IMG/VR virus record: IMGVR_UViG_3300022413_000009
Location: 4,827 to 68,826 of that record
DNA length: 64,000 nucleotides
From: a virus
Direction: 5' to 3' (one strand)
The notes beneath the pieces are model-generated. The model did no database searches. It saw only the letters and a list, made by a program, of their open reading frames with translations, and was not told the origin of the DNA. Both the position numbers and the translations under genes were made by a program. Positions within the stretch are counted from its first letter, which is position 1; each line of letters begins with the position of its first letter. This document shows positions 28,344-50,288 of this stretch, piece after piece.

Positions 28344-29043
28344 CGAGCTTCTTCTGCTGAAAACACGTTAGGGCCGTCGGAAACGTGCAATTGATGATGC
28401 GTTCTTTGTCCTCTGGCTTGATTAGATTGTACTGGCTGACGAACCCTTTATAGTTGTTCGATTGGTTGAGAGGTTTCGGATGTGGTCCGAAGAAATGCTG
28501 CTTCTCTCCTCTTGGGACATCCATGTTGTAACCCAGAAGCAGGAATTTCCGAATGCCGTAATGCCAGGCGAGATTGAGAAGTTGGAAGCCACTATTCGAT
28601 CCATAGTGAATGAGGTTCTTAGTTTTTGAAAGCCCCTGTCCACCTTTCCCATTCACAGTCCTGACACCTTTCCCGGGATTCTTGGCGGACCAATTCTTAT
28701 CCTGAGTCCATTTCTCCTGGCATGGATTATCGTGGACTTTAGGATTCGAGTCCCACCACCTTGGATCGCAAGCATAGAGAACGTCCATGAAATCACATAT
28801 TCGATAGGCGTCGTTCAGACCAAAGACTCGAATGAGCCCCTGCTCGTGAAAAGGTCGGATATACTCGATCTGATCCTTCGTGAGTGACGGTCCAGTGGCG
28901 AGTAGAACTGCGGTATCACCAAGAAACTTCTCAGGGACATTGTCGAATTTCTGAGGTGGCTGTCTCCTTGGCTTCCGTCGCGGTGCTCTTTGCCGAGCTC
29001 TCTCATTTGGCTTCACTCCAATTTCTTCCTTTTCCGGTGTCAA
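28165..29043 (-). CDS. DUF115/MptE-like protein, paralogue B
   Basis: 292 aa; LLATGPSL ... HYGSNSGFQLLNLAWHYGIRKFLLLGYNM; clear paralogue of 27591..28343. Confidence 0.35.
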   Translation of the reverse strand: MTPEKEEIGVKPNERARQRAPRRKPRRQPPQKFDNVPEKFLGDTAVLLATGPSLTKDQIEYIRPFHEQGLIRVFGLNDAYRICDFMDVLYACDPRWWDSNPKVHDNPCQEKWTQDKNWSAKNPGKGVRTVNGKGGQGLSKTKNLIHYGSNSGFQLLNLAWHYGIRKFLLLGYNMDVPRGEKQHFFGPHPKPLNQSNNYKGFVSQYNLIKPEDKERIINCTFPTALTCFQQKKLGDALPLSLLKEYQNGSRPEQETLGRPDTPDIQGEEGDNNRHRPIIDRERCSVYPEGTGE

Positions 29044-31045: not shown

Positions 31046-31409
31046 CAGAGATTTGCGGTTGAGTTTTTAGAATCGCTTTGATGTGATTAGTTGTCAAATC
31101 ACTCAAAGCCTTCCTCTGAAATGGTCCTTTCCCATCCTTACCGTATGTGCCCCACTTGAAATGGACACGATTATGCTCATGGTTGTCGGAAGATTCAATC
31201 GACATATCCACTTCATCGCCATGTGCTGAACGTCGAAGATAGTCTAGCCCTCCGTCAACCATATATTGTTTGCCATTGGCATCATTGTGAGTCACGTAAT
31301 CGTGACGATAGGTACTTTCGATGATTGTTCCATCGGGTGTTTTCAATGCGTTTCGAAGTATCACAGCCTCACTCCAATAATGATTCCCTCTAAATTTTCG
31401 CCACGCCAC
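30996..31409 (-). CDS. Hypothetical protein
   Basis: 137 aa ORF between putative clamp and polymerase. Confidence 0.3.
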   Translation of the reverse strand: MAWRKFRGNHYWSEAVILRNALKTPDGTIIESTYRHDYVTHNDANGKQYMVDGGLDYLRRSAHGDEVDMSIESSDNHEHNRVHFKWGTYGKDGKGPFQRKALSDLTTNHIKAILKTQPQISDEIRSFFEAELKHRGE

Positions 31410-32341
31410 GGGCAGGGCTTCGGATACGTCGAGACATCCATGTGGGTTGCCCTGCTCAGGGCCAATTGCAGGGGTACCGCGTGAAATGACGCCTCACCGA
31501 CCTCACCGGCGAGCGAGTCAACCGCAATCATCTGCCCCTCCATCGTGCTGATTTCGTTGCCTTTGAATGTTACGATAGGCATCGACTTGTCTTGTGCGAA
31601 CGGTACCAAGTCCCTCACCACTTGGGCGGTGTCACTCGGGAGCTTTGGTAGTCCGCTGCAATCGGGTATCATCGGCGCGACATCAGGCCAGTCAGTCGCG
31701 TACCTCACTGAGCGCAACCAGACGTCATCATCATACTCGTACGCCACGCCATTGTCATGAATCCAGACATACTTCGGTTCGCGTCGGATTCTCACCATTT
31801 CATCGACTGTAAAGCCTGGCAGCCCAAATATCGGGTATTCATCCGGCCAATCGTACTCCGTTCTCACCATTATGATGTTGTTCGTCGCGTAGAGATGGTC
31901 ACCCTGATGCAGAACACTCATCGCCCACGGCCTGCTGGCATCGCTGCTGACAAACGGGCTGACGCGACGTATCGCTTCTATATACTCCTTTGGATCTTCA
32001 ATTTCGTACCGATCCCCAATCGTCACTGGTTTCGAGTAATCATCGGTTGAGAGAGGCAATCGAATCATCCTCATCTTGCGCGTCTTGCTCTTCATTTTCA
32101 TGAAGCCGTCGCCAATCTCAATCTGCGGATCACCGTCGCACCTGTCAACCGCTGTCACAAATGAAGCCCCGGGAACGGTTATCGGATCGTCATGTATCTT
32201 CGGGAACGGCGCCTCAATGCTGATGCGGCCATTGTTCCCATATATCTTCCCGTCTGTGATGTGAAAATGTGTCAACACCGAGATGAGGTTCTTGTCGCTG
32301 ACAGCGCCGCGAACGAGGTTCAATGTTTGGCTAATGCTCAT
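31361..32341 (-). CDS. Possible DNA polymerase sliding clamp (DnaN-like)
   Basis: 326 aa; N-terminus LNLVRGAVSDKNLISVLTHFHITDGKIYGNNGRISIEAPFP resembles beta-clamp domain I; adjacent to polymerase; weak. Confidence 0.25.
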   Translation of the reverse strand: MSISQTLNLVRGAVSDKNLISVLTHFHITDGKIYGNNGRISIEAPFPKIHDDPITVPGASFVTAVDRCDGDPQIEIGDGFMKMKSKTRKMRMIRLPLSTDDYSKPVTIGDRYEIEDPKEYIEAIRRVSPFVSSDASRPWAMSVLHQGDHLYATNNIIMVRTEYDWPDEYPIFGLPGFTVDEMVRIRREPKYVWIHDNGVAYEYDDDVWLRSVRYATDWPDVAPMIPDCSGLPKLPSDTAQVVRDLVPFAQDKSMPIVTFKGNEISTMEGQMIAVDSLAGEVGEASFHAVPLQLALSRATHMDVSTYPKPCPWRGENLEGIIIGVRL

Positions 32342-33129: not shown

Positions 33130-33432
33130 TTACAGTTGACGACGACGCCGTGTTTCTCGGGTGACTCTGACGTGACATCTTCCGCACAAGAGGCAACCGT
33201 CTGCTGTCTTCTCATGGCCGAATCTCTCGTAAGTTAGATGATGGACCTCCATTGTTTTGACAATATCCTCGAACTTCTTGCACCACTGGCAATAGCCCGC
33301 ATCACGCAACCATACACGGTCTTGCCATATCCGCTGATGAGCTGAGTCAGGATGCTCAAGAGCGGGCCTACGTTCATGCGGCGGTTTCGGGATTAGCCAT
33401 TCGGGAACCGAGGTGGGTCCAAAATTGTCCAT
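33130..33432 (-). CDS. HNH endonuclease
   Basis: 100 aa; CQWCKK...HHLTYERFGHEKTADGCLLCGRCH HNH/zinc motif. Confidence 0.55.
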   Translation of the reverse strand: MDNFGPTSVPEWLIPKPPHERRPALEHPDSAHQRIWQDRVWLRDAGYCQWCKKFEDIVKTMEVHHLTYERFGHEKTADGCLLCGRCHVRVTRETRRRRQL

Positions 33433-34198
33433 CTGCTATCTCCGAGAAGTCCCACTGAGCGTAGGCTAGGTCGTGAAGCCATTGTGTACGATCACGAAGA
33501 TCTGTCAGCTCATCATTCACTGAGTTCCAAGCTATTGGGTGGGCCATTGACTCTGGGCCATACGCCACAGTGGGTACACCCTGAATGATAGCATCAACTC
33601 CACCAATTGTGTCATAAGTCACGCAAAGAACCGCTCCCTTTAGCGCGGTTTCGATATCATCTTGGGCAAAACCAGGTGCCTTTCCCCACCCACATGGTAT
33701 CCGATCACCCGCCCGAAATGGATGGGGCCGGAACTTGACTGATCGATTTGTCTGATCGAGCAACCGAGCCACTCTCTCATACCACGATGTCATATCACGG
33801 AATTCACCGAGAACGAGGATATATCCATCATCTATCTCCGGCATCATGCGCCAGGATCTAAGAGGGACGCGGTGCTTGTCCCACCTATCTCCCGGGCTGT
33901 TCTCGTTCATGAAATCGGCGCGGCCGTTGAATCCATCCCAGCCAATCGCGACATTGTCATGCCGGTCTCCGAAAAAGCAACGGTTGACTGTCAGCACGGG
34001 AATCTTCTTCGACTGGCAAATTCCGAGAGTTTTCTTCCACGAATTGTTCGCGAAGAGAACATGAAGATCGCCATTCGTGTCGACCGCGTCGTGATTCGTG
34101 AAAATCACGGGTATGCCGTGGTACCCGAAACCAGATACGAAATAGTCCTGGTATCGACGCTGCCAACCGGATCCGGTGCTGTGAATCACTGCCCTCAT
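33374..34198 (-). CDS. Hypothetical protein, possible glycosyltransferase-like fold
   Basis: 274 aa; C-terminal segment reminiscent of GT-B C-domain; low certainty. Confidence 0.25.
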   Translation of the reverse strand: MRAVIHSTGSGWQRRYQDYFVSGFGYHGIPVIFTNHDAVDTNGDLHVLFANNSWKKTLGICQSKKIPVLTVNRCFFGDRHDNVAIGWDGFNGRADFMNENSPGDRWDKHRVPLRSWRMMPEIDDGYILVLGEFRDMTSWYERVARLLDQTNRSVKFRPHPFRAGDRIPCGWGKAPGFAQDDIETALKGAVLCVTYDTIGGVDAIIQGVPTVAYGPESMAHPIAWNSVNDELTDLRDRTQWLHDLAYAQWDFSEIADGQFWTHLGSRMANPETAA

Positions 34199-34506
34199 AC
34201 AGGTGTGATAGTCACATTCCCGACATTCAGAGGAGGTGAGTCATCTGCCACCGTGTACGGCACCTCAAGGCCAGACGATTGCGCGCCATTCGTGTCGACT
34301 GTGATGAAGCGGAAGATCCAATCGCCAAAGGCGACGTCGTTCACTGCTACATTAAGATCTGGCGGTGCTATGTTGCCAAGGGGTGCGTAGTCCACACCAC
34401 CATTGGCACTTCCCGCCACAGCGACGTGAGCAATCTCAGTGACGTCAAGTACGCCGCCAAGCTCACGCTCAATGGGTAGTTCCCAAGATATAAGTAGATT
34501 TTTCAT
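34195..34506 (-). CDS. Hypothetical protein
   Basis: 103 aa ORF. Confidence 0.3.
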   Translation of the reverse strand: MKNLLISWELPIERELGGVLDVTEIAHVAVAGSANGGVDYAPLGNIAPPDLNVAVNDVAFGDWIFRFITVDTNGAQSSGLEVPYTVADDSPPLNVGNVTITPV

Positions 34507-34624
34507 GTATCGTTCTCCAACCTAATTGAAACGCCCGTCACATTCTTTGGACGGTCTATGGGAGGCTTTTTGTCATCCCCTTTCAAAATAATAGCCACGA
34601 TAACAGCCACAACGATGGCGACAA

Positions 34625-35215
34625 TCAGCCACATTCAGCTACCACCAATATGTCTTGCACACCGGTGAACGTCACGTCAGCGTCGTCTACGGCATAGAAT
34701 TTCTTCTGTATGATTGTCACACCATCAGAATCGAACACCTGTCCTTCGACAGAGATATCCGTACGACAGTCAGTGCCTAATGGAATAGAACCTACGACTG
34801 GCAGGAAGAAATTTCCATTGGTTTTGGATACGCTGCGAACTTTCGTGTCAACTGTCTTCCAAGCGGTGATAGTCTTCTCCGCTGTGCTTGAGATACGTGA
34901 GGAGGTTCCACCGGCGGAGTACGCTGTAGAGGTGTAGGTGTACGTACCAGGCTTCACGTAGTCAATTTGATAGCTCGTCACCGTGCCGTCGGGTATGTCT
35001 GCCACGAGTTGCCAGATTCGTGTGCCACCTTGGTTCGTGTACGGACCGGCGTTCGTGCAGGTCTCCGTCTCCGTTGGGTTCGTCCAGTTCAACGCTATGC
35101 TGTCAGCGCGTACCTTCGACGATACGAAGCCTAGGATGACGACTATAGCCCAGAACGAGGCCCACTCGACTATCGTCATTGGACGGTTCTTCCTCATTAG
35201 AATCTCCACCCCCAT
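34625..35215 (-). CDS. Secreted/membrane-anchored beta-rich (Ig/FN3-like) protein
   Basis: 196 aa; N-terminal TM/signal segment and Thr/Ser/Gly/Tyr-rich beta-strand composition. Confidence 0.35.
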   Translation of the reverse strand: MGVEILMRKNRPMTIVEWASFWAIVVILGFVSSKVRADSIALNWTNPTETETCTNAGPYTNQGGTRIWQLVADIPDGTVTSYQIDYVKPGTYTYTSTAYSAGGTSSRISSTAEKTITAWKTVDTKVRSVSKTNGNFFLPVVGSIPLGTDCRTDISVEGQVFDSDGVTIIQKKFYAVDDADVTFTGVQDILVVAECG

Positions 35216-35685
35216 GTGATCAAGTCCTGCCCACGATTCGGCTTCGTGGTCCCCGCATTCGACCAGTGCCGAATGCCGATTGATTGATGGTCAGTGATGC
35301 GCCATTTGAGAACCAGAGTGTAACCGAGTTCGTCACCAATAAATCTTGAAGTGTGGATCCAGTACGCCGCGCCAATATGCACCTCAGTCGGGAGTGCCTT
35401 CCACCATGTCTCAGGTTTCTGTGCCACGAATGCGACAAAGACATTGCCGTTATTGTCGAGCTTCAGATCGTTGTAATCCTGCTCACTGATGAGAGCGATG
35501 CCAAGGTCAAACTTCTCCTGGTAGACTCTCTCAGTCAGTACGAGTCCCACGCCACCGTTGAATCCGCTGGCAAACGTCGGACCGATTTCAACTTCTGTCG
35601 CCTTCGCTTTATAGGCGAAGAACAGAAGCAGAACGATCAAGATTGCGATGACAGCGCCTTTCGGATTATCAAATAATTTGTTCAT
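35197..35685 (-). CDS. Outer-membrane beta-barrel protein (PagL/OmpA-like small barrel)
   Basis: 162 aa; signal peptide, alternating amphipathic strands, C-terminal ...ITWGWRF ending in Phe (OMP sorting signature). Confidence 0.45.
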   Translation of the reverse strand: MNKLFDNPKGAVIAILIVLLLFFAYKAKATEVEIGPTFASGFNGGVGLVLTERVYQEKFDLGIALISEQDYNDLKLDNNGNVFVAFVAQKPETWWKALPTEVHIGAAYWIHTSRFIGDELGYTLVLKWRITDHQSIGIRHWSNAGTTKPNRGQDLITWGWRF

Positions 35686-36608
35686 AGGTCAAATATCCCT
35701 TTTTGGACTGGAAGATGGCTGGTGTCACCGATGCTGCGGTACAGTTCCGTCATCATCATGCGGTTCCACAATGCCCTGGATTCGAATATTGTACCCAATT
35801 CCTCCAGGGTAAACTTCCATTTCTTCATCAAATCATACAGGTAATCTCGCTCAGGATCGGCAAGTGTCGTGACGTGGGCGTTCTTATCATGCCTTGTTGG
35901 TGAGGTCTCACTGACGCCAACGATGCGGAAATTCGTGTCAATGAAGATCCCACCGTAGGCCGCTATCAGGATCCAGGTTGCGGAGTCAACCGACAACCAC
36001 GGCACTTTCGTCATCATTTGGGTTCCGGTTGCTGCGAGACCATGCGTTCGGATGCCCTCTGGTAGCAGATGATGCGTTTCTGCTGCCCACCTGGCGCGAT
36101 ATGTTTCCCCAAGGTCATTCCTGGGCGAGATGCAGACGTATCCGCCCGACATATCGCAAACCTCCTTCAGGCGAGCCTCATCTTCGTTCTGGTGGAACAC
36201 CGGAAGGACCCGATTTGGGAACTTTTCGTTCAGTACCGCATAGTTCTCATCGGAGATTTTGATGGCTTCAGCGAGTTGTTCTTCGGTCGCTGTCTCTCCT
36301 GGTTTTCCCGGGATTTTGTCCAAGTTGATGAACCACACCTTATTCAAATCACCGATGATGTCCACCAATTCAGCGTAGACATCGACCAGGTGCGGCAGGT
36401 GGACTTCCTCGCCTTTCGTCCAGGCAGTGAAGGCGCCCGAATCGAGCATGATTTCGTAATTGTCGTCAATCTTGGCGACAATAGGGCTTGTCGCTTTGGC
36501 ATATTTCACGTAGGAGCCGTGACAGGAGAAAAGCCGGTACCGCGGAGTACCGAGGCGCTCATCTGCCTCGATGACCCCTTTACCGACTCCCGAATAGTAG
36601 ATATGCAT
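35682..36608 (-). CDS. dpdA: DpdA / tRNA-guanine-transglycosylase-like 7-deazaguanine DNA transglycosylase
   Basis: 308 aa; IMLDSGAFTAW matches TGT catalytic ILTDSGGFQVF region; embedded in preQ0/preQ1 biosynthesis gene cluster. Confidence 0.6.
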   Translation of the reverse strand: MHIYYSGVGKGVIEADERLGTPRYRLFSCHGSYVKYAKATSPIVAKIDDNYEIMLDSGAFTAWTKGEEVHLPHLVDVYAELVDIIGDLNKVWFINLDKIPGKPGETATEEQLAEAIKISDENYAVLNEKFPNRVLPVFHQNEDEARLKEVCDMSGGYVCISPRNDLGETYRARWAAETHHLLPEGIRTHGLAATGTQMMTKVPWLSVDSATWILIAAYGGIFIDTNFRIVGVSETSPTRHDKNAHVTTLADPERDYLYDLMKKWKFTLEELGTIFESRALWNRMMMTELYRSIGDTSHLPVQKGIFDL

Positions 36609-36665
36609 CAGCTCACTTTTAATACTACGCCATTTGAAATTTGATCGTCGTCGCGACGAGCATTT

Positions 36666-37175
36666 TCAATTCATGCGGATGATTTGTTTTTCGTTCGGCA
36701 TCTGGACGCTCGGGCCGCCAGAGAGTTCGGGATGGGCCCAGACTGCGGTTGGCCAGAAGGGTATCCCGCCGCGCGGCGTAAAACGTCCCTGTACCTCGAT
36801 TCGGTACGGCTCGATAGCGTCCACCAAATCGTTGATGATTTTGCAGACGCAACTCTCATGGAACTCACCGACATTTCTGTATGAACCGAGATAGAGTTTA
36901 AGGGATTTTGATTCAACGCACAATTCCCGTGGTGTGTACTGGATGATGATTTCTGCGAAATCAGGCTGTCCGGTTTTCGGACAGAGAGACGTGAACTCCG
37001 GCGCACGGATCACGATATTCCCTGCTGCCCCGTTGGGATTTCGCCCTTCTTCGCCTTCTTCTGTCGGCCAGAAAGGATTGGGGAAACTCTCTAGGAGCTC
37101 CGGATTCGCTGTGTCATATTCATACTTCGTGTCACTTGAGCCCAGCGATTTCAGTGACTTCGTTTGATCGTTCAT
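36666..37175 (-). CDS. queF: NADPH-dependent 7-cyano-7-deazaguanine reductase QueF (preQ0 to preQ1)
   Basis: 169 aa; FTSLCPKTGQPDF catalytic Cys region and ESKSLKLYL QueF signature. Confidence 0.7.
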   Translation of the reverse strand: MNDQTKSLKSLGSSDTKYEYDTANPELLESFPNPFWPTEEGEEGRNPNGAAGNIVIRAPEFTSLCPKTGQPDFAEIIIQYTPRELCVESKSLKLYLGSYRNVGEFHESCVCKIINDLVDAIEPYRIEVQGRFTPRGGIPFWPTAVWAHPELSGGPSVQMPNEKQIIRMN

Positions 37176-37866
37176 CTTCGAATCCTATTGCGTTGTCAAG
37201 CCACAGCGGCTCGGTGTGCGGGCCTGTCTCCAACCACCTAACGATGGCTGGGATACAGGTATCGAGTTTGAAATGGTCAGTCCAATCTTTTAATCGAATG
37301 AATCGACCAATCACTTCTTCTGTCCACTCCGGATCAGGCTCCTTCGTAAACCATTCACATCTCGCGCCGCGTTCTCCGTCAATTCGGCGCATTGCCCAGC
37401 CTCGCCCGAAAGGCCTGTGGGTAACTTGGTTGGCTCGTTCGGGTATCTCCGAATGAGTAAATCGTATCAATTCGAACTCGCAGCTCAGAGCGTTTCCGAC
37501 TGAGTCAGCGTTGTCGTGAATTCCGCAGCGTCCATCAACCAAATTCAAATGATGGCAGTAGTAGGTGTCGTTCCCGACTTGCATGTCACTCATCACAGGA
37601 AACTCTTCTCCGTCAAATTGGATCATCCTCTCTTCAACTCGATCCGCGACACCCGAGTGAAGCTTCTCTCCGGGCAGCCAATCCATCGTGAACTTACGGC
37701 AACAACCGCCGCAGTTCGGATGGCAAATCATCTGCCTTGTGAACATGCCAGGCGACACGCGCAATCGTTTCGGATGATATATCTTGTTCTTGTATCCGAA
37801 AGGCCGCAGCGTCACGGGCGCGAAATACGATGTGATGATCTTCTCAACTGAGTCCATTGAGTTCAT
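37132..37866 (-). CDS. Cys-rich hypothetical protein
   Basis: 244 aa; CHPNCGGCC and additional Cys/His clusters; unknown function, inside deazaguanine cluster. Confidence 0.3.
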   Translation of the reverse strand: MNSMDSVEKIITSYFAPVTLRPFGYKNKIYHPKRLRVSPGMFTRQMICHPNCGGCCRKFTMDWLPGEKLHSGVADRVEERMIQFDGEEFPVMSDMQVGNDTYYCHHLNLVDGRCGIHDNADSVGNALSCEFELIRFTHSEIPERANQVTHRPFGRGWAMRRIDGERGARCEWFTKEPDPEWTEEVIGRFIRLKDWTDHFKLDTCIPAIVRWLETGPHTEPLWLDNAIGFEDERSNEVTEIAGLK

Positions 37867-38462
37867 ATTCCAAATCCTAGGTCAAAGGCCTTCGCGAAAA
37901 ATGCGGACTTCGCGTCACGCGGCAATTGGGGAATGATTTCTATCCTCAATTCCTGCGCCTCTTGGCCGTGTTCATCCCACCCGACCCAATCTCGCGAGTC
38001 GGCATTGATAAGATTCTCTGCTTCAACGAAGAGAGCCAACCAGTCGGCTTTCTTGACGATGTCGCACTTTCCGATGAGCTGATACTTCTCTTCAATCCGT
38101 TTCTCAATCATCGCTTCGAGTTTATGGTAGCCCACCACTTGAGCTTTGAAGGGAGCAGCCATGTCACTCAAATAGGCTTCGCTGGCATCATGGAAGAGTG
38201 CCTGTCGTTGCTCTCCTTGGTTCCCGCCAAGCCATTCGACAATGCTAGTCACCAATACCGAGTGCTGCGCCACGGAGTAGAAATGAGTTACGTGGCCGGT
38301 GTACCGGCATTGATTGCTCAACGCATGACCGATATCTTCAATGCAAATTTCAGACGGATCATCGCCAAACAGATTGAACCTCTTGTCACTGTATGTCGTG
38401 ATCCACACGTGATCCTTGAATGCGTTTCTGCTACCCGGCATCGGGCTCCTCCTGATTGTCAT
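37863..38462 (-). CDS. HD-domain phosphohydrolase
   Basis: 199 aa; H...ALFHDASEAYLSDM HD motif (YfbR-like 5'-deoxynucleotidase type). Confidence 0.5.
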   Translation of the reverse strand: MTIRRSPMPGSRNAFKDHVWITTYSDKRFNLFGDDPSEICIEDIGHALSNQCRYTGHVTHFYSVAQHSVLVTSIVEWLGGNQGEQRQALFHDASEAYLSDMAAPFKAQVVGYHKLEAMIEKRIEEKYQLIGKCDIVKKADWLALFVEAENLINADSRDWVGWDEHGQEAQELRIEIIPQLPRDAKSAFFAKAFDLGFGI

Positions 38463-38964
38463 AACACGAGATGGCGAAGTGGTCGTTCTCTTTCTCCGTC
38501 ACCACATGGACATTCTGCCAGCGGTACATGAGTTTCCTCATCCACCAGGCTTGGGGCTTGAGTGTGATATGAGCGTTCCTTCCGTCTGGTAGCTTCGCAC
38601 AAGCCGGGCGAACTGAAATGACGAAGAAAGCCGCTAGGATCGTCTTTGATTTGATGTGGTCCAAAACAGCGTCGATGAACTCTTCCTCGACATGCTCCAT
38701 CACGTCAATGCAGAGGACTAAGTCGCAAGGGACCGGATCTTCTGAGAACTCTCCTTCAATCGCCGGATCATAATTTGTCACGCCCGGGAAATTCTGGCTC
38801 ACAGTCGCCTTGCCGCAGCCATAATCGAGGATAGAGCTTTGCTCTGGCCATGAATAGACGAAAGGGACGATCCATTCTTTCCAGCACCGCCAGGCGCTCG
38901 ATCCAAAGTGTTCGCTCTGCTTGTGAAGCTTCGAGTTCAATGCCTTGTATTCGTCAGATATCAT
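38431..38964 (-). CDS. Class I SAM-dependent methyltransferase
   Basis: 177 aa; motif I ILDYGCGKA, acidic motif II region LVLCIDVMEH. Confidence 0.5.
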   Translation of the reverse strand: MISDEYKALNSKLHKQSEHFGSSAWRCWKEWIVPFVYSWPEQSSILDYGCGKATVSQNFPGVTNYDPAIEGEFSEDPVPCDLVLCIDVMEHVEEEFIDAVLDHIKSKTILAAFFVISVRPACAKLPDGRNAHITLKPQAWWMRKLMYRWQNVHVVTEKENDHFAISCYDNQEEPDAG

Positions 38965-39337
38965 CTACGTCATATATCCTCTTCAAAAGTATCTCCGCGA
39001 TCTCGGGTGGGCTGAAATGGTCGCCTTTCAGCACCTTCCCATTCTCGTCCTTACCTTCTTTCGTCATGTTGCTTCGGTGGACTTCGGCAAAAACCTTGTC
39101 CAATGGAATCCCGTAATAATGAGCGGTGCCGCAGATGACATATACCATGTCAGCTAGGGCGTCCGTCACTTTCGTGAGATCCTTGCCTCGTTCAGCATAC
39201 CGATATTCATGATACTGATCCTCTAAGAGCTTCATTCGCCTCTTCACCTCCTCAGTGTCGGGTAGGTGTGGGACATCATTTATCGGTATGTCAAATTTCT
39301 CGTGAAACTCCTTAACGCACATCATCGCGCGATGCAT
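38954..39337 (-). CDS. MazG-like nucleotide pyrophosphohydrolase (all-alpha NTP-PPase)
   Basis: 127 aa; helical EExxE-type composition typical of MazG/HisE family; moderate. Confidence 0.35.
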   Translation of the reverse strand: MHRAMMCVKEFHEKFDIPINDVPHLPDTEEVKRRMKLLEDQYHEYRYAERGKDLTKVTDALADMVYVICGTAHYYGIPLDKVFAEVHRSNMTKEGKDENGKVLKGDHFSPPEIAEILLKRIYDVDDI

Positions 39338-39350
39338 TGGCCTTCTCCCA

Positions 39351-39908
39351 TTACCGTACTTGGTTCAAAAACTCCTCTTTGGCACTATTATCGCTCTTGA
39401 ATACGCCTCTTAGGGCTGTGGTGATGGTTTCGTGTCCCTGCTGACAGACTCCACGGCTTTCCATGCACAGGTGCCGACAGCATAGCCTGACCGCCACTCC
39501 TCTTGGCGACAGAACATCGTATATGGATTCTGCGATTTGATCGGTGAGTCGTTCTTGGACTTGGAGTCTGCGGGAAAAGCAATCCACGACTCGATTGAGT
39601 TTGGAAAGTCCGCAGATTTTCCCATCCGGGATATAGGCGACTGAGGCACGACCAAAAATAGCAGCAAGATGGTGCTCGCAATGGCTATATACCGGAATAT
39701 CACGGACCAACACCATTTGGTCGTAGTTTTCACCGCCATCTTCGAACTCCTTCATTATGTCCTTAGGATCTTCGCCGTAGCCCTTGGTCCAGAACTCCCA
39801 CGCGCGAGACACGCGCAAAGGGGTCTCAACCAATCCGCCTCGTTCCGGGTCCTCACCGATTCCTTTGAGCAGGTATCCGGCAGCGGCTTCTAGGTCACCA
39901 TTGCTCAT
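39351..39908 (-). CDS. folE: GTP cyclohydrolase I (FolE)
   Basis: Start trimmed to [33 protein letters not shown]; catalytic [13 protein letters not shown] motif. Confidence 0.7.
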
Positions 39909-40621
39909 GCTGCGGCCACCACGCTCTTCCAGAACTCTCTGTCTTCGTACTCGAGTGGATCTACCCACCCCATGTCGTTGAATGACTCCAGTCGTTCGAC
40001 ACAGGCGCCGCACTTGCCGCAGGCCTCTCTTCGACCGTTATAGCAGGTCCAGCTTTGACCATAATCCTCAGCGGTGAGACCAAGATCTTTGCCCACGTCA
40101 AGTATGTCGCCTTTGGTGAGTGTAATGAACGGTGTCAGCAATTTGACAGGTTGGTAGTTCGCAATCATCGTCGCTCCATTTAGAGCGTCGAAGAACTCTT
40201 CTCGGCAGTCGGGGTAGATATCGTGATCCCCTGCATGGGCGCCGCAGAACACGGCACCAATATCTAGGCTCACCGCGTATCCGACTGCTAGGCTGAGCAT
40301 TATCATATTTCGATTCGGGACGACTGTCGCCTTCATGTTTTCTTCAGAGTAGTGTCCCTCCGGGACCTCAATGCCGCTGGTCAATGAGCTGCCTTGGAGC
40401 AGAGTGTTGATTGATCGAATGTCAACCACCTTGTGCGGAATTCGTTTCACCGCGCAAAATCGGTGAGCGTACTCAAGCTCTTTGGCATGACGTTGCCCGT
40501 AATTGAACGACAAGGCATGCACCTCGTCACAGGTTTCGAGAGCGTGATTGAGAAGCGTGAACGAGTCCATGCCTCCCGAGTAGATGACTACCGACTTCAT
40601 AATGATACCTCCGCTGAACAT
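39905..40621 (-). CDS. queC: 7-cyano-7-deazaguanine synthase QueC
   Basis: 238 aa; PP-loop VIYSGGMDS and C-terminal zinc cluster [11 protein letters not shown]. Confidence 0.75.
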
Positions 40622-41052
40622 TTTCGTGTCTCTTCGACGATGACTTTCGTGAGCTTGACGCCGGGAGCATCAGCCAACAATTCCGGACCCATTATTTCGA
40701 GAAGATATCTGCCCATATTCTCGGCTGTCGGGTTAAATGGTGTGATGTGGAGACTGTCGTGCAGGTGTTGCCCTGGGTTGTCTCCGCTGATGAATCCTTG
40801 CTGAAGTAACTTGAGCATCGGATCGTCTTTCCAGATGAGGAACTTATGGTCCCATCTTCGCTCAAGCCATTCACAGAGCTTCGACTTGATGACTCCGAAG
40901 TCTATGACACGACCCACACCGTCGAGTTCCTCTGCTTCACAGAAGAACGTCACACGATAGTTATGTCCGTGGAGCCACCGGCACTTGTTCTCGTGTCCAA
41001 CGACGCGGTGTCCGGCGCTGAAATCGTGGTACCTAACTGCTCTGATTGACAT
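40597..41052 (-). CDS. queD: 6-carboxy-5,6,7,8-tetrahydropterin synthase QueD
   Basis: 151 aa; CRWLHGHNY (CxxxHGH) PTPS-family motif. Confidence 0.7.
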
Positions 41053-41470
41053 AGTTCCTCTCTAATGGGGCAATGGTGTGGATGGTTAGAGGATCTTCTT
41101 CTGCCTGGTGGGCTTCAACGAACTGGGCTGTCTCCATCCCAATAGCACGAACAACAACCTTCTTTTCTTTGACCGCCTGTATGGGACAAGGTACGACAAC
41201 CGCCTCACGGCCGTAGACCTTCCCGTCTTGGACCAGGACCAAGTCTTCACCGTCTTGATAGAAGAGGGCATAGTATCCGTCTGGATCATTTGCCAGGTTG
41301 CCATTGAACTGGACCGTGATGTCAATGCAGAAAGGATCGTCATCGAACTCACCAAGTGTGACGACGTTTGAATAGGCCGACCCCGGTTCGGCGAGTGCTG
41401 GGGGAAGTAGCGCCACGGCGGAGCCAAGGCCGACCATTTGCAAGAACTTTCTTCGATCCATCTTAGTCAT
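41033..41470 (-). CDS. Secreted protein with twin-arginine (Tat) signal peptide
   Basis: 145 aa; MTKMDRRKFLQMVGLGSAVALLPPALA. Confidence 0.5.
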   Translation of the reverse strand: MTKMDRRKFLQMVGLGSAVALLPPALAEPGSAYSNVVTLGEFDDDPFCIDITVQFNGNLANDPDGYYALFYQDGEDLVLVQDGKVYGREAVVVPCPIQAVKEKKVVVRAIGMETAQFVEAHQAEEDPLTIHTIAPLERNYVNQSS

Positions 41471-41831
41471 CGGAATGGAACTCTCCTATCAAACAATGTA
41501 GGAACTCGTGCCCAAGGGCATCCATGTCGGGGTCTCCGAGTATCTGTTCTGGCCGCCTAGCGTAGACAGCACAGAGCGAGGAGTTCGTCTCCTCATCATA
41601 ATAGAACGAGCTCCAGGCTTCACCGCCACGTTCACTGTCGAGCCAATTGATGTGAACGGTTGTCGAGTCAACCTCCCATTCCTGTTCGACTTCTTCACCA
41701 TAAGGATCGTAGCAGTAGAGCGGAGTCTCCTCAGCCTGTGCTTCAACCGGCTTGAAATTCAGCGTTACCCCTACTCCGAGAAAAAAGGTCACAATGACCA
41801 TCGATGCGACGACAATATGTATCTTCAACAT
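41463..41831 (-). CDS. Small secreted HExxH zinc-metallopeptidase-like protein
   Basis: 122 aa; signal/TM N-terminus and HEFLHCLIGEFH near C-terminus. Confidence 0.35.
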   Translation of the reverse strand: MLKIHIVVASMVIVTFFLGVGVTLNFKPVEAQAEETPLYCYDPYGEEVEQEWEVDSTTVHINWLDSERGGEAWSSFYYDEETNSSLCAVYARRPEQILGDPDMDALGHEFLHCLIGEFHSDD

Positions 41832-42553
41832 TATGGTAACCCCAGGTGCTTGTGAAGTTGATAGCTCATCCGATACCCGTACTGTTTCACAAGGCTGATG
41901 GCGTGTAGCTCGTTCTGCCGGTTCTCATCCTTGTCATACGAGTCTAGTGGCTGGACATACACCGCCTTACCGTTTGGAGGACGTGCCAGACGAATGTGCT
42001 TCTGCTTGGTTTGGGTACTGAGAATTGGCAAGCCATCCTCTTTGTCGGTATCGTCGAAGCTCACGATATACTTGTAACAGGACGACAGAGATTCAATTGT
42101 CTTATTGATTTTGGCCGTCTTCGGTGAGCAGACAATAGACAGATTGCCGTTCGCGAAAGCCAGCCTCGCCCAGTCATCGTTGAAGGCATCAATCCAGCGA
42201 ATGCCGTTCGTTTCAATCTGTACCCGATGCCCCTGCTCCAAGAGTTTGAAGCACAGGACCGAGATGTCTTGTCGAAAAGGCTCGCCGCCAGTGAGCACTA
42301 CCAAGTCAGTTTTGATGTGCTCATTGGCGGCGATAATCGCCAGAAGTAGTTCATCCATATGGGGGTGCCATGTGGACGATTCGAAGTCAGTGTCGCACCA
42401 GAAGCATTTGAGATTGCATCCGCCGAGGCGAACGAAGATAGCGCCTTCGCCAGCGAAAGGTCCCTCACCTTGTATGGTAGGGAAAACTTCTTGGATCCAG
42501 AGTTGATTTGGTGAGGATAGGTCCTGTTTTCTTATAGGGTTTTCGCCGAACAT
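41831..42553 (-). CDS. queE: 7-carboxy-7-deazaguanine synthase QueE (radical SAM)
   Basis: 240 aa; TIQGEGPFAGEGAIFVRLGGCNLKCFWCDT cluster-binding motif. Confidence 0.75.
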   Translation of the reverse strand: MFGENPIRKQDLSSPNQLWIQEVFPTIQGEGPFAGEGAIFVRLGGCNLKCFWCDTDFESSTWHPHMDELLLAIIAANEHIKTDLVVLTGGEPFRQDISVLCFKLLEQGHRVQIETNGIRWIDAFNDDWARLAFANGNLSIVCSPKTAKINKTIESLSSCYKYIVSFDDTDKEDGLPILSTQTKQKHIRLARPPNGKAVYVQPLDSYDKDENRQNELHAISLVKQYGYRMSYQLHKHLGLP

Positions 42554-42585
42554 ATCACCGGTACCTTTCTATGTGGTTGAAGATA

Positions 42586-42999
42586 TTACTGGGTATCCAC
42601 TTCCGACGCAAGTTCTGAGTCACCCGGATTCTCAAGTCGTTGATACACCTCTTTAATGGACTCTTGCAATGACTCTTTCATGTACGAGAAGCGGTCAGGA
42701 ATCGCAAGAACCTTGACAGGTTTGTCTGTCATGTCGAGCGGGAATCGCATTTCAAGGGTCTGGAAATGGATATCTTCCATGCAGACGATTTCATCTGCCC
42801 AGTGGATTAGGATGGCATCCACCGGGATTAGCGCATAATCATTCGCGCCAGCGGCCCTGGTATTGAAGCCAAATTCTCGTTGAAGGACAACCGCAGCGGT
42901 CGGAGAACGCAAAAGACCCGCAGAGCAGACGCAAAGAACTCTCTTCGCGTCGCCCTGGTACGGGTTCTTGCAGGTGAACAATCGATTCATATCGTTCAT
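42586..42999 (-). CDS. Low-molecular-weight protein-tyrosine phosphatase / ArsC-like protein
   Basis: 137 aa; P-loop CSAGLLRSP (CX5R-S) near N-terminus and downstream DP loop. Confidence 0.45.
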   Translation of the reverse strand: MNDMNRLFTCKNPYQGDAKRVLCVCSAGLLRSPTAAVVLQREFGFNTRAAGANDYALIPVDAILIHWADEIVCMEDIHFQTLEMRFPLDMTDKPVKVLAIPDRFSYMKESLQESIKEVYQRLENPGDSELASEVDTQ

Positions 43000-43224
43000 T
43001 TAAGGATCCAAAAGTTTCTTCGCCTCCTTGAGGGTTCTCCGTGCCTTGTTCACGTCTTTTGCTACAGAGAGAGGATCAATCTTCTCCCCTTTGGTCTCCT
43101 TCCGGAAGCCTGCAATCATGGCACCAAAGTCACCACCAGCTTGGCGGATACGTTTCGTCCCGAACAACATGATCACGATTACTGCGATAATCAGAAGTTG
43201 GGGCATGCTTATTCCTGACAACAT
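43000..43224 (-). CDS. tatA: Twin-arginine translocase subunit TatA/TatE homologue
   Basis: 74 aa; [42 protein letters not shown] aligns closely with bacterial TatA ([40 protein letters not shown]): TM helix, hinge G, amphipathic helix. Confidence 0.75.
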   Translation of the reverse strand: [74 protein letters not shown]

Positions 43225-43331
43225 TTCATTTCTCCTTTCTATGAGATAAGGAGCGGGCCCTGAGTTTCCGGTTTGAATGACATTGACCTAGTCATCGCAT
43301 CCCCTTCAATCTACTGGCGGGCCCGCCGTTT

Positions 43332-43361
43332 GAAAAACCCGCCCCGGGTTGGCAGGGCGGG
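43332..43361 (-). terminator. Rho-independent terminator between 43434..44183 gene and tatA
   Basis: Minus-sense CCCGCCCTGCCAACCCGGGGCGGG hairpin followed by TTTTTC. Confidence 0.45.
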
Positions 43362-43433
43362 AGCCTTCTAGATTCCTGGACCGAGAAGGCATGGCCCGTT
43401 CTGTTGCCAGGTGGGCCAGTCCCCGAATCTTCT

Positions 43434-44183
43434 TCAGGCTGCGATGTCGAACTCTACGACCTCATCAATCAGGTCGTGAAGCTTCCGAGTGCGAGGAGCC
43501 AGCTCGTTGACTGACAGTCCCTTCAGCGACTCGGTTGCAGCGTTGAACAACCTCCAACCACTGTCGCCAGTCTTGGCAAACGACTTGTGGTCAGGTGTGT
43601 CCCACTGCTCGACAACCTTCTCGACTCGTCCTGTGTTGATTGCACCTCGGCGCAACATCTCAACGATCAGGTACTCAGCCTCGAAAGGCGTGAGCTGACG
43701 TTTCTTGTAGGCGTCATATCGAGCTGACTGCACCGCACTCAAGTCGATGACTTTGCCTACTGCGTCGTCAATGACGTCGCCCAGGCTGTCAAGAATGAGT
43801 GACGTATGCTTGCGGCCAACGGTTACTTCACCGCTGAACGCTAGGTTGTCACAAACGAAGACGCCACTACCACATGCGATGGAAGCGGCAAACCACTTGA
43901 TGTGGCTGTTCCGCAATCCGATGACGGTAGCGAAGTCCGCGCTCTTCTTCGAGTGAACTTCCATCATACCGAACATGTTCGCGCCTTCATGGCCGAGAGC
44001 GAATGCCGTCGATGCGACTTTCAATCCCTTCTCATTCAAGCGGTCCTCAACCAGGTCAACGAAGTAATCGTGACCAATGGGGACAAACGTCTCTGTCTTA
44101 GGCGGAAGGACCATACCCGAGAGGACGTTCCTTTCGACGTAGTTCGCACCACAATGGGCGATTAGGTTTAGGTTCTTACTCAT
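43434..44183 (-). CDS. Conserved phage protein (DUF932-like)
   Basis: 249 aa; length and N-terminal pattern reminiscent of DUF932 family; by memory only. Confidence 0.3.
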   Translation of the reverse strand: MSKNLNLIAHCGANYVERNVLSGMVLPPKTETFVPIGHDYFVDLVEDRLNEKGLKVASTAFALGHEGANMFGMMEVHSKKSADFATVIGLRNSHIKWFAASIACGSGVFVCDNLAFSGEVTVGRKHTSLILDSLGDVIDDAVGKVIDLSAVQSARYDAYKKRQLTPFEAEYLIVEMLRRGAINTGRVEKVVEQWDTPDHKSFAKTGDSGWRLFNAATESLKGLSVNELAPRTRKLHDLIDEVVEFDIAA

Positions 44184-44189
44184 TGTCTT

Positions 44190-44255
44190 TCTCCTTGCTT
44201 TCTATGAATGCTCAGATGTAATACTAACATCGTCACTCACGATTGCAAGAACTCA
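44190..44255 (-). promoter_or_regulatory. Conserved promoter-like element (partial copy)
   Basis: GCTCAGATGTAATACTAACATCGTCACTCACGATTGCAAGAAC shares the AATACTA...ATTGCAAG core. Confidence 0.4.
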
Positions 44256-44765
44256 TTAAGCCTCGACTGTATTCATTTCCGTAGCGACAAAGTTCACGTC
44301 TGCCGTGATAAGTTCATGCGGTGACGCCTGTATCGACACGCTATTGATATAGGCATTGAACCGATGCTTCCACGGACCCTGGTGAACTTCAATCCAATGA
44401 GGTCCATGCGTCTCCGTGAGCAGACGTACCTTTTCAATATCTTCGACATACATCGTAAACCGGCCAGAAATCTCACGTCGTCCAAATCCAAATCCAACGG
44501 GGCTTAAAACACCAACCTGTCGATGAGGATAGATATTCTCGTCCAATGAGAATTCGGATTCAATGACCATAGGTGTGAAGACTTCACCTTCAACCATCTC
44601 CTTGACTGGTTCAGAAACTTCAACGCCCGCCTGTTCAAGTGCCGCGATTGGTGATCCTTCAATCACCTCGTGTACCGCTTCGTCACCTGTCACCAGGTGT
44701 CGGCCAACCGTGGTTACGGCTACGCCACCGATCGTCATACCTTTTATGAAATCTCGTCTATCCAT
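44256..44765 (-). CDS. Secreted protein with twin-arginine (Tat) signal peptide
   Basis: 169 aa; MDRRDFIKGMTIGGVAVTTVG. Confidence 0.5.
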   Translation of the reverse strand: MDRRDFIKGMTIGGVAVTTVGRHLVTGDEAVHEVIEGSPIAALEQAGVEVSEPVKEMVEGEVFTPMVIESEFSLDENIYPHRQVGVLSPVGFGFGRREISGRFTMYVEDIEKVRLLTETHGPHWIEVHQGPWKHRFNAYINSVSIQASPHELITADVNFVATEMNTVEA

Positions 44766-45237
44766 TGTTCTCCTCCACCACCGTACCGTCAGGGTAGATG
44801 ATAATAATCGGCTTCCCCTTCTTGCGAGCGTACCTCACCGTCGCCCACGTTCCACTTCGAACTTCTTCGACGTTCCCGGGACACGCGATGATGATATCCC
44901 CAGCATCCACGATGTCGTGATTGCGAGGGATGTAATCCTTTGGCTCGTACCAAACATCACTCGTGACATACGCCCTCAACTTCGACTTCGTCGGCGGATG
45001 GCCATGTACCTCGATATTTAGACTTCGAGCAGCCGTTGCCGCGGCAGCGTCTGCGCCCATACAATCACCGTGATGAAACTCACATGGCTGAAGCTTTCGC
45101 AATCGGTCTGTCAGTGCGAGTCCCGCTGCTCGGCTTATCATATTCCTCGTTCCCGTGAAACCAATCACAGGATAGTCTGAAGGATTGATGTGCTCATCCA
45201 TCACGCTCACGCCCGGTGGAAGATTCCATCCGCTCAT
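44758..45237 (-). CDS. SLOG/DprA-like Rossmann-fold protein
   Basis: 159 aa; GFTGTR ... HHGDCMGADA ... HGHPP pattern typical of SLOG (YpsA/DprA-like) nucleotide-binding domains. Confidence 0.35.
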   Translation of the reverse strand: MSGWNLPPGVSVMDEHINPSDYPVIGFTGTRNMISRAAGLALTDRLRKLQPCEFHHGDCMGADAAAATAARSLNIEVHGHPPTKSKLRAYVTSDVWYEPKDYIPRNHDIVDAGDIIIACPGNVEEVRSGTWATVRYARKKGKPIIIIYPDGTVVEENNG

Positions 45238-45475
45238 CGTCTATCTCCTGTTGTCGATAACGCTCGTAGGCCTCATCTTCATCCTCTTGTCCGAAAATGC
45301 TTTCCCATTGCTCATCATCATCCTCCGGTGTTTGGGGACTGTCTGAAATATGGCAAGGCATCTTGTGCGTCAACTTTCTTCCTTTCTGTAAGCCCGAGGG
45401 CTGAGGGTGTGTCCCAGGTTTGTGAGGGCGAAACCTAGACCTAACTGCGACTTCCCTCAGTTCTAATAATACAAC

Positions 45476-45823
45476 CTACCGCCGCTTCTGCAAACGGTTA
45501 TAGAGCAGGATTATTCTCATCCCTATAGAAAATCTAGGTTCGTACCTGACCCCGCTACGCAGACGATTGAGATATGACTGTGAACATCCCACGATTTGCG
45601 CAACTCTCGAGCTCGAAATCTTGTGCTTCAATTGCAGGGTCCTGAGGATCTTCTGAAAATCAACCTCAGCCGGGTGTGTAGTCTCCGAAATTGAGCGTTG
45701 GGAGGTTTTTGCTCTGTTGATATTCGCGCCCGGGGATGTCAGACCAGACAAGTGACTCTGGTACTTCATAGAGTTGGTCGCAATTTCTGCAGACATCGAT
45801 GTCATCGAATCTTCCTTCCTCAT
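45476..45823 (-). CDS. Helix-turn-helix DNA-binding protein
   Basis: 115 aa; SSRVAQIVGCSQSYLNRLRSG HTH; overlaps 3' end of radical SAM gene by about 158 nt in another frame. Confidence 0.4.
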   Translation of the reverse strand: MRKEDSMTSMSAEIATNSMKYQSHLSGLTSPGANINRAKTSQRSISETTHPAEVDFQKILRTLQLKHKISSSRVAQIVGCSQSYLNRLRSGVRYEPRFSIGMRIILLYNRLQKRR

Positions 45824-46646
45824 GCGCTAACCTGAGTTCACGATACGCAGGGGAGTCGACAATTTCTGCGATGGAATTTGAATCGAGATGTCCAAGCACT
45901 CCTCGGGAATCTTGCCCAAGCACCATACAGCACGCGACAACCGCCGCACGGTGGCTGCCAAGGCCTCCAGCCCGCACTTGCAAAAGGGGAGCGTTGGGTC
46001 GGCCACAAGATCTTTTTTCACCGCGCCGATGATAGTTGATGTCGATCTTATCTGAATCTGCCCAATTGTGCATGAGCCAAATTTCACTGTGAGCTCCAGT
46101 GAATCGGCCCCAGTTCTTTCTATACTGTAATACTTCATATTCGACCTCTTCCTGATTTATGATTAGGTGATTGATGTGCATCTCACTCAGCGATCCTTTC
46201 GCCATGCTGACGAAACGCCGAGCGTTCTCTCTCACCAAATCATAATCCCCGCCTTCCATCCACTTCGTGTACGTCGGTTTGTCATAACCGATGCAAGACA
46301 GGCGTAGGATGTCAATGCCTGCCTCTATCAATTCTCCGCTCAGTTTCTCCGTCAGCTTCTTACCGTTGGTAAACGATATGCAGGTGAGGCCGCGATCCTT
46401 GACTGCCTTGACGAACTTCGGAAAGTCTCGGTTGAGCGTCGGCTCGCCGCTGCCATGGAGTGTAACCGTCTGGAGGCCATACTGCATCCCATCGTCGACA
46501 ATCTTTTCGAATACATCAAAAGGGAGCTTTCTGAGAAACTCTCTCTCGCGTCCTTGTGACTGGGGACACATCTGGCACTTATAGTTACAGCCACCATTCA
46601 ACTCTAAGTCAAGGACATGTATCTGCAGGTCTTCAGGAGTCGGCAC
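45666..46646 (-). CDS. Radical SAM superfamily enzyme
   Basis: 326 aa; CNYKCQMC (Cx3Cx2C) near N-terminus, GSGEPTLN SAM-binding region. Confidence 0.6.
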   Translation of the reverse strand: MPTPEDLQIHVLDLELNGGCNYKCQMCPQSQGREREFLRKLPFDVFEKIVDDGMQYGLQTVTLHGSGEPTLNRDFPKFVKAVKDRGLTCISFTNGKKLTEKLSGELIEAGIDILRLSCIGYDKPTYTKWMEGGDYDLVRENARRFVSMAKGSLSEMHINHLIINQEEVEYEVLQYRKNWGRFTGAHSEIWLMHNWADSDKIDINYHRRGEKRSCGRPNAPLLQVRAGGLGSHRAAVVACCMVLGQDSRGVLGHLDSNSIAEIVDSPAYRELRLAHEEGRFDDIDVCRNCDQLYEVPESLVWSDIPGREYQQSKNLPTLNFGDYTPG

Positions 46647-49805: not shown

Positions 49806-49881
49806 TGGTACCCCCGGTAGGATTCGAACCTACATCAGTCGGCTTAAAAGGCCTGTCTCTGCGCAATTGAGTTACGGAGGC
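49806..49881 (-). tRNA. tRNA-Lys (anticodon UUU), tentative
   Basis: T-arm GTAGG-ATTCGAA-CCTAC, acceptor with two G-U pairs, loop CUUUUAA. Confidence 0.45.
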
Positions 49882-49887
49882 AATGTT

Positions 49888-49962
49888 TGGTGGATGCGGT
49901 AGGTCTCGAACCTACGTCTTTCCCGTTAAGAGCGGTGACTCTGCCAGCTGAGTTACGCATCC
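49888..49962 (-). tRNA. tRNA-Lys (anticodon CUU), tentative
   Basis: T-arm GTAGG-TCTCGAA-CCTAC, acceptor GGATGCG, loop CUCUUAA. Confidence 0.45.
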
Positions 49963-49967
49963 GAAAT

Positions 49968-50042
49968 TGGAGCCCCATCTAGGATTCGAACCCAGAAGCT
50001 AATCAGTTTCGAAGACTGACACCCGTCCACCGGGCATGAGGC
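49968..50042 (-). tRNA. tRNA-Arg (anticodon UCG)
   Basis: T-arm CTAGG-ATTCGAA-CCCAG, anticodon stem TCAGT/ACTGA with loop CUUCGAA. Confidence 0.5.
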
Positions 50043-50043
50043 T

Positions 50044-50120: not shown

Positions 50121-50126
50121 ATTGTT

Positions 50127-50201: not shown

Positions 50202-50202
50202 T

Positions 50203-50280: not shown

Positions 50281-50288
50281 TTAGAATT

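Follow-up and report, generated by a model that had tools for sequence, protein, structure and literature searches.

The 64,000-nucleotide stretch of viral DNA analyzed here, referred to as the window, covers positions 4,827 to 68,826 of the IMG/VR record IMGVR_UViG_3300022413_000009 and carries a cluster of 7-deazaguanine genes at 35682-42553. Coordinates are window positions throughout, and L-numbers (L006, L093 and so on) denote related viral or metagenomic loci used for comparison. The genes of this region are all located on the minus strand, and their junctions within 35682-42553 range from a 44-nucleotide (nt) overlap to a 57-nt gap, so that they form one co-directional array. The array holds homologs of the preQ0 pathway enzymes FolE, QueD, QueE, and QueC, the preQ0 reductase QueF, a DpdA-like transglycosylase, and a cysteine-rich protein that resembles DpdM; five further genes are interleaved with them.

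The preQ0 pathway enzymes are recognized by their family matches and by their motifs. GTP cyclohydrolase I, FolE (185 amino acids (aa), 39351-39908), matches its Pfam family at 1.4e-67 and passes three NCBIfam models (NF006825, NF006826, and the TIGR00063 equivalog), reaching 227.9 bits against the NF006825 cut-off of 174. Its CEHH motif can be read from the translation, and the gene calls of the source contig place its start at an internal ATG at 39908, which overlaps the stop of QueC by 4 nt. The preQ0 synthase QueC (231 aa, 39905-40600; Pfam QueC, 2.1e-64) carries an SGGMDS PP-loop and a C-terminal cysteine cluster, and in the CPH4 synthase QueD (151 aa, 40597-41052; Pfam PTPS, 1.1e-26) the CxxxHGH motif is made up of C24, H28, and H30. 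QueE, the radical-SAM 7-carboxy-7-deazaguanine synthase (240 aa, 41831-42553), matches Radical_SAM at 1.8e-9 and contains the motifs C46x3C50x2C53 (CNLKCFWC) and FPTIQGEG; its top five NCBIfam matches are all QueE models, yet they remain under their cut-offs. Judged by these matches and intact catalytic motifs, the complete GTP-to-preQ0 route is encoded, as the initial annotation of this DNA had claimed.

QueF is a unimodular NADPH-dependent preQ0 reductase (169 aa, 36666-37175; Pfam QueF, 2.2e-29) that scores 132.6 bits against the TIGR03139 equivalog for QueF-II (preQ1 synthase), well over the cut-off of 86.9, so the earlier assignment as a preQ0-to-preQ1 reductase is borne out. The catalytic C65 is located within LCPKTGQPD, and the NADPH motif E88-SKSLKLY95, which is absent from the QueF-L amidinotransferase (PMC10516641), is retained. 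Because QueF is a true NADPH-type reductase, dPreQ1 is predicted rather than dPreQ0 or archaeosine, and the earlier claim to this effect is upheld. Two other subtypes were considered in a scan for extra pathway and tailoring families that covered the open reading frames (ORFs) in 33374-45237, a part of the window. DpdL (dDG subtype) was rejected, as the sole PTPS protein has CxxxHGH and not LxxxHRHxF (motifs from PMC10516641), and DpdN (fdPreQ1 subtype) was rejected, as no PF00551 formyltransferase is found among these ORFs.

The transglycosylase is a protein of 308 aa (35682-36608) that matches phrog_887 at 1.4e-41, a family annotated as "queuine tRNA-ribosyltransferase," and harbors the LDSGAF motif at residues 55-60. 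Its subfamily was assigned by direct comparison with the DpdA proteins of phages 9g, phiSM, and nt-1. In BLASTP it matches the prototype 9g DpdA at 3e-24 (29% over 255 aa) and phiSM DpdA1 at 2e-21 (31% identity); DpdA1 proteins can be reached by sequence search from 9g DpdA, unlike DpdA2, and the 308-aa protein is reached in this way. An AlphaFold2 (AF2) model built on 30 homologs (predicted local distance difference test score, pLDDT, 90; predicted template modeling score, pTM, 0.86) takes on a TIM-barrel fold typical of the tRNA-guanine transglycosylases (TGTs). Among viral structures, Foldseek places it closest to an uncultured-phage protein (E 1.5e-29, TM 0.85) and to the transglycosylase of Dinoroseobacter phage R5C (E 3.9e-24, TM 0.86), whereas the DpdA2 of Vibrio phage nt-1, the only DpdA2 compared structurally, is distant (E 1e-7, TM 0.59). 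In the PDB the matches are Zymomonas mobilis TGT (E 2e-8, TM 0.55) and bacterial DpdA (bDpdA, 7UI4; E 2e-6, TM 0.50, 16% identity), and searching the PDB chains by sequence or by profile returned only noise. The protein matches no Pfam family, including TGT (PF01702), and no NCBIfam model, and neither its sequence nor the family alignment contains the zinc CxCxxC...H subdomain or the C-terminal tRNA-binding part. The likeness to TGT is therefore confined to the superfamily level, with the fold and an invariant D56/D208 pair. The initial annotation had described a DpdA-like TGT-fold protein and had named a grouping with the tRNA-modifying enzymes as the result that would speak against it; the nearest relatives found here are phage DpdA proteins, with TGT far behind. 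The 308-aa protein is a member of the TGT superfamily that groups with phage DpdA and is of the DpdA1 type.

Five positions, D56 and F60 (LDSGAF), D97 (NLDKIP), H139 (FHQNE), and D208 (SVDSA), are invariant in the 30 homologs and are proposed to form the active site. They would correspond to D95, F99, D130, H181, and the nucleophile D256 of bDpdA (PMC10164549), a mapping that follows motif order and predicted strand positions rather than a superposition. H139, aligned with FHAGE in 9g, and H189 (THG) are both invariant in the family, and either may be the counterpart of the conserved histidine at "position 196" that DpdA2 enzymes do not have (PMC6884629).

The cysteine-rich ORF (244 aa, 37132-37866) overlaps the QueF gene by 44 nt and encodes a cysteine-cluster protein of the YkgJ/PF03692 type with eight cysteines that was recognized by tblastn as a homolog of DpdM. 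DpdM, a protein of the YkgJ type with the motif CxxxCxxCC, has been tied to mdPreQ1 in phages phiSM, phi-Grn1, and phi-ST2, and the DpdM of phage VH7D has been validated in vivo (PMC10516641). In tblastn the window protein matches phiSM at 2e-21 and VH7D, phi-Grn1, and phi-ST2 each at about 2e-18, with top matches to a "YkgJ family cysteine cluster protein" of phage Pan1 (2e-49) and to Mycobacterium phage Knocker (4e-41). The phiSM match is gp53, located between QueF and DpdA, and its position and numbering fit CEPG_00054, which is DpdM. The cluster C48xxxC52xxC55C56 and the cysteines C104, C114, C129, and C170 are invariant in six reference and 33 metagenomic sequences, and the 33 metagenomic homologs share 16 invariant columns. 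PF03692 is found in many of the homologs, and the window protein itself has no Pfam match at E<=0.01 and no NCBIfam match. Its AF2 model (pLDDT 89) has no significant fold match in the PDB (best E-value 1.2), which fits the published statement that the DpdM fold is not among the known folds of nucleic-acid methylases (PMC10516641). By sequence, the cysteine-rich ORF is a DpdM homolog and a predicted dPreQ1 N-methyltransferase, and mdPreQ1 (7-(methylamino)methyl-7-deazaguanine) is therefore predicted in addition to dPreQ1.

The linkage of these genes was followed across related loci. Searching IMG/VR with a profile of the 308-aa family yielded 80 loci, and the presence of QueF was counted over the independent loci with a DpdA of at least 38% identity on a stretch holding FolE, QueD, QueE, and QueC (n=43). 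QueF is present in all of them (43/43), and its start is located at most 1.5 kb from DpdA in 53 of 57 loci. DpdM occurs in 12 of the 43, never in the absence of QueF, and the two gene starts are always 617-794 bp apart. An NCBI metagenome contig (L097) shows the identical order FolE-DpdM-QueF-DpdA, and the close relative L093, whose pathway proteins are 69-78% and whose DpdA is 60% identical, is without DpdM and HD. The DpdA clade is thus linked to QueF and of the preQ1 type, with DpdM as an optional add-on. Longer DpdA forms were also observed. One form of 430-476 aa (L001 9655-10956, L057, L059, L063, L065, L066, and L069; e.g., Pan1_56) matches only residues 53-223 of the window DpdA at 42-48% identity and has differing termini. 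Other long forms, in L071 (416 aa) and in L076, L077, L079, and L082 (525-540 aa), match residues 52/53-282 at 31-34% identity. In the clustering, DpdA and QueF merged into one cluster, perhaps via fused or run-on ORFs.

Five genes of the array do not belong to the established route. The HD phosphohydrolase (37863-38441) is of the T5 Dmp/YfbR-like deoxynucleoside monophosphate (dNMP) phosphatase type (phrog_318, 1.3e-47; weak match to Pfam YfbR-like) and is found in five of 81 independent related loci (eight matches when three self-copies of the window contig are included); it probably serves general nucleotide metabolism. The MazG-like nucleotide pyrophosphohydrolase (127 aa, 38954-39337; Pfam PRA-PH, 2.6e-16; phrog_671, 6e-29) follows FolE in the closest relatives L006, L010, and L093 but not in more distant ones. 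Next to the cluster of phage phiST, Cui et al. likewise noted a MazG/dUTPase gene, to which they gave no role in modification (PMC10516641). Between these two lies a class I S-adenosylmethionine (SAM) methyltransferase (177 aa, 38431-38964) whose match to Methyltransf_23 (8.2e-6) falls just below the gathering score. Its family comprises 546 homologs, and those examined outside the lineage are located in the capsid modules of SU10-like phages or beside glycosyltransferases of Caulobacter phages; no deazaguanine genes occur in the stretches examined around them. Its companions in the SU10-like phages are a tetratricopeptide repeat (TPR) protein, glycosyltransferase GT29-/GT8-like proteins, Methyltransf_21/24, and radical SAM/SPASM proteins.

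The remaining two interleaved genes are located between QueD and QueE. The 145-aa ORF (41033-41470) starts with a twin-arginine signal peptide (MTKMDRRKFLQMVGLGSAVALLPPALA) that reads MTKMDRRKFLQ...ALA|EPG; it has no Pfam or PHROG match and no homolog in 90 related loci or in L093-L096. The 122-aa ORF (41463-41831) carries a hydrophobic segment in its N-terminal part and HEFLH in its C-terminal part, belongs to no Pfam or PHROG family, and has no homolog among the related loci compared. Both ORFs look like insertions unique to this phage and probably stand outside the pathway. The initial annotation had placed two Tat-secreted proteins and a mini-metalloprotease within the cluster. Only one twin-arginine gene is interleaved, as the other (44256-44765) lies beyond the interval, and the protease label of the 122-aa ORF is unsupported, with nothing but the HEFLH string behind it. 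In relatives, genes of the homing-endonuclease type occupy the same slots of the pathway (HNH_3 in L006 476-865; T5orf172/GIY-YIG-like in L011 5770-6321), which marks these intergenic slots as insertion hot spots. The HD, MazG-like, methyltransferase, twin-arginine signal, and 122-aa genes are most likely insertions or genes of general nucleotide metabolism. An earlier suggestion that extra genes in the cluster may tailor the base is supported for the cysteine-rich ORF, now assigned to DpdM; it is not supported for the HD, MazG-like, and methyltransferase genes, whose association with the pathway is not conserved and which are unlikely to act on the base.

Among the known systems, phage phiSM (Cui et al. 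2023, PMC10516641) is similar in gene content, with DpdA1, FolE, QueD, QueE, QueC, a unimodular QueF, and DpdM. Its DpdM is 39% identical and shows the same eight cysteines, and QueF, DpdM, and DpdA are located side by side near clamp and polymerase genes. The systems differ in gene order (QueF-DpdM-DpdA in phiSM, DpdM-QueF-DpdA in the window), in the size of DpdA (240 aa in phiSM, whereas the window protein carries a conserved C-terminal helical extension), and in the five extra interleaved genes of the window, whose cluster has no ParB-like gene. Pseudanabaena phage Pan1 and Mycobacterium phage Knocker, for which annotation alone was compared, provide the best DpdM matches among isolated phages (41%) and have mutually adjacent QueF, YkgJ-like, and TGT-like proteins. 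In contrast to the window, Pan1 encodes a longer transglycosylase of 433 aa that matches only residues 53-223, and the Knocker annotation lists QueF as a second GTP cyclohydrolase.

In Vibrio phage VH7D, preQ1 insertion and methylation have been validated. Its DpdM is homologous (27%, 2e-18), and the same chemistry is expected for the window; VH7D, however, uses a DpdA2, and its DpdM is longer and contains insertions. In the roughly 8 kb to either side of the VH7D DpdM, neither a QueF-like nor a DpdA-like gene turned up. Enterobacteria phage 9g and Escherichia phage CAjan share a homologous DpdA and a preQ0 pathway beside polymerase and clamp genes, but are without QueF and DpdM: 9g uses Gat-QueC to reach archaeosine (dG+), and CAjan stops at dPreQ0. 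The bacterial Dpd system has the TIM-barrel TGT fold in common with the window protein, and the catalytic aspartate pair is apparently conserved (PMC10164549). It differs by the large Ins8 and the zinc site of bDpdA, both absent from the window protein, and by the insertion of preQ0 within a restriction-modification system; neither a DpdB ATPase nor DpdC was seen in the annotated region of the window.

Taken together, it is quite probable that the cluster is a preQ1-type DNA modification module that yields partial dPreQ1 and minor mdPreQ1 by way of DpdA and DpdM. By homology, FolE, QueD, QueE, and QueC convert GTP to the free base preQ0, which QueF reduces to preQ1. Once the phage DNA has been replicated, DpdA, as a member of its family, would act on the double strand and swap guanine for the 7-deazaguanine base, following a TGT-type double displacement with D208 as the nucleophile and D56 as the general acid/base. 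The inserted base is most likely preQ1, because QueF is constant in the company of this DpdA clade. Some of the dPreQ1 would subsequently be turned into mdPreQ1 by DpdM, a two-metal cysteine-cluster protein that would add a methyl group to the aminomethyl nitrogen. Tested enzymes of the DpdA1 type replace 0.1-30% of G, and mdPreQ1 amounts to 0.01-0.1% of G in tested phages (PMC10516641), so only partial modification is expected. In the resulting DNA, dPreQ1 would take the place of G only in part and probably at specific motifs, and mdPreQ1 would make up a minor fraction; this would blunt host restriction enzymes with G-containing sites.

Several points weigh against this proposal. The phage is known from metagenome contigs alone, the mapping of the active site to bDpdA is indirect, and the class I methyltransferase adjoins deazaguanine genes in all three carriers of the lineage (window, L093, and L011). 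The phage tRNA-Asn(GTT) and tRNA-Tyr(GTA) are natural queuosine substrates, so that tRNA modification could draw on free preQ1 as well. Where measured, the activity of DpdM is low, the phiSM DpdA1, as the sole tested DpdA1 from a phage with QueF and DpdM, was inactive in E. coli, and direct insertion of preQ1 has been demonstrated only for a DpdA2 (PMC10516641).

The methylation step is where the alternatives come closest. The phage might form dPreQ1 (or dPreQ0) only, with a DpdM homolog that is inactive or acts on another substrate. This would be in line with the very minor share of mdPreQ1 even in validated phages and with the dispensability of DpdM in the lineage, as L093 has the same cluster without it. 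The eight metal-ligand cysteines and 16 columns that are invariant in 33 homologs, however, argue for purifying selection on a working enzyme, and DpdM occurs only ever with QueF and always adjacent to it; this alternative is unlikely. It is more doubtful still that preQ1 or dPreQ1 is tailored by a second enzyme distinct from DpdM, the class I methyltransferase. Its gene is located between MazG and HD/DpdM, the same place beside QueF is taken in L093, where DpdM is missing, and two copies flank QueE in L011. If this role were real, mdPreQ1 would arise in the lineage through an enzyme unrelated to DpdM, or the product would be a doubly methylated 7-deazaguanine that has not yet been described. 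The gene is, however, present in only one of 81 related DpdA loci, the examined outside members of its family belong to capsid or glycosylation modules, and its usual companions (Methyltransf_21, MptE-like, and radical SAM/SPASM proteins) are also encoded in the window.

Two further alternatives concern the destination of the base and the moment of its entry into DNA. A role in translation, in which preQ1 would supply queuosine precursors to tRNAs via a host TGT or via the DpdA-like protein acting as a TGT, would be compatible with the TGT fold of the 308-aa protein and with the array of 17 tRNAs found by ARAGORN at 49809-51636 (minus strand; 9 of 17 reach the Rfam gathering score), whose tRNA-Asn(GTT) and tRNA-Tyr(GTA) are two GUN-anticodon tRNAs. 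It is very improbable in view of the missing Pfam TGT match, the absence of a zinc or C-terminal tRNA-binding subdomain, a DpdM that is known only from DNA modification, the absence of QueA, QueG, and QueH from the ORFs scanned in 33374-45237, a part of the window, and the clear homology to 9g DpdA, a DNA modifier (PMC6884629). A pre-replicative route, in which the MazG-like and HD proteins would reshape the dGTP pool and a 7-deaza-dGTP analog would be incorporated during replication, has an analog in MazZ/DatZ of the Z-genome phages. Both genes lie inside the cluster, and the MazG-like gene follows FolE in four related phages. This route is nevertheless hardly credible here, as DpdA is present and every virus known to have 7-deazaguanine in its DNA encodes DpdA, for which post-replicative insertion has been proposed but not demonstrated (PMC10516641). 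In addition, the HD protein falls into the widespread T5 Dmp-type family of dNMP phosphatases and is missing from close relatives, and no base-to-nucleotide kinase or phosphoribosyltransferase was seen.

The proposed preQ1-type module is embedded in the replication gene block of a tailed-phage genome, of which the window is a part according to PHROGs. The window encodes a family A DNA polymerase (PolA, 29003-31045), a sliding clamp (31361-32341), and helicases and a primase (51900-58614), as well as the major head protein (2139-3185), portal (6779-8557), and large terminase (8557-9975). A protein identical to the DpdA-like one is encoded on an 87,151-bp metagenome contig (ENA ERZ28013244 k141_4109482) and on two shorter contigs; the source samples have the ENA accessions ERZ28013244, ERZ27296363, and ERZ27296376. 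When 35000-43300 was compared by megablast with 50,697 phage records, no match was returned, so the phage has no isolated near relative among them. No preQ1 riboswitch was found by Rfam, either at the gathering threshold over the whole window or at E<=1 in 34000-46000, and a promoter/terminator scan stayed at background level with the exception of a strong terminator-like hairpin on the minus strand (43361-43338).

This hairpin is located just upstream of a TatA/E homolog (43000-43206, minus strand; Pfam TatA_B_E, 1.1e-10) that is 67% identical to L093 2398-2622. The twin-arginine-leader ORFs at 41033-41470 and 44256-44765 (minus strand) are near this gene, and one twin-arginine ORF is kept in L093 (1698-2201) with its RR motif intact. 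By tblastn, TatA matched seven of the 50,697 phage records, most of them evidently bacterial or host-contaminated, so a phage TatA looks rare. Directly upstream of QueE, a 137-aa ORF that matches no family (42586-42999, minus strand) shows a P-loop, C25-X5-R31-S32, of the low-molecular-weight phosphatase/ArsC type and is 52% identical to an ORF of L006. On the other side of the array, a PagL-like gene (lipid A 3-O-deacylase, PF09411; 35197-35685, minus strand; 28 bits, with the gathering score at 23) overlaps the stop of DpdA by 4 nt. It encodes an N-terminal hydrophobic segment, has no homolog in the related loci compared, and suggests a Gram-negative host and possible remodeling of the outer membrane. 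Paralogous MptE-like, Methyltransf_21 (FkbM), and radical SAM/SPASM genes are located at 25622-28343 and 45666-46646 (both minus strand), and L006 5104-8286 adds a GT8, an epimerase/dehydratase, a DAHP/KDO8P-synthase-like gene, and a metallophosphoesterase. Sets of the MptE-like/Methyltransf_21/SPASM type recur together with the class I methyltransferase family in the capsid modules of SU10-like phages (L094-L096), which suggests a function in the modification of glycans or virions.

The system was published between 2019 and 2023, the description of this gene set with QueF and DpdM dating from 2023. The present analysis adds the assignment of DpdM, the strict linkage of the DpdA clade to QueF, and the placement of the extra genes, probably outside of the pathway. 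Whether a given restriction enzyme, CRISPR effector, or sequencing chemistry works on a phage genome depends on its modified bases. To the few predicted makers of mdPreQ1, the locus adds an environmental phage lineage with dozens of related metagenomic contigs. The linkage of the DpdA1-like clade to QueF offers a simple genomic rule to tell preQ1-type from preQ0-type DNA, and the presence or absence of DpdM among close relatives provides a natural comparison set for the added value of mdPreQ1.

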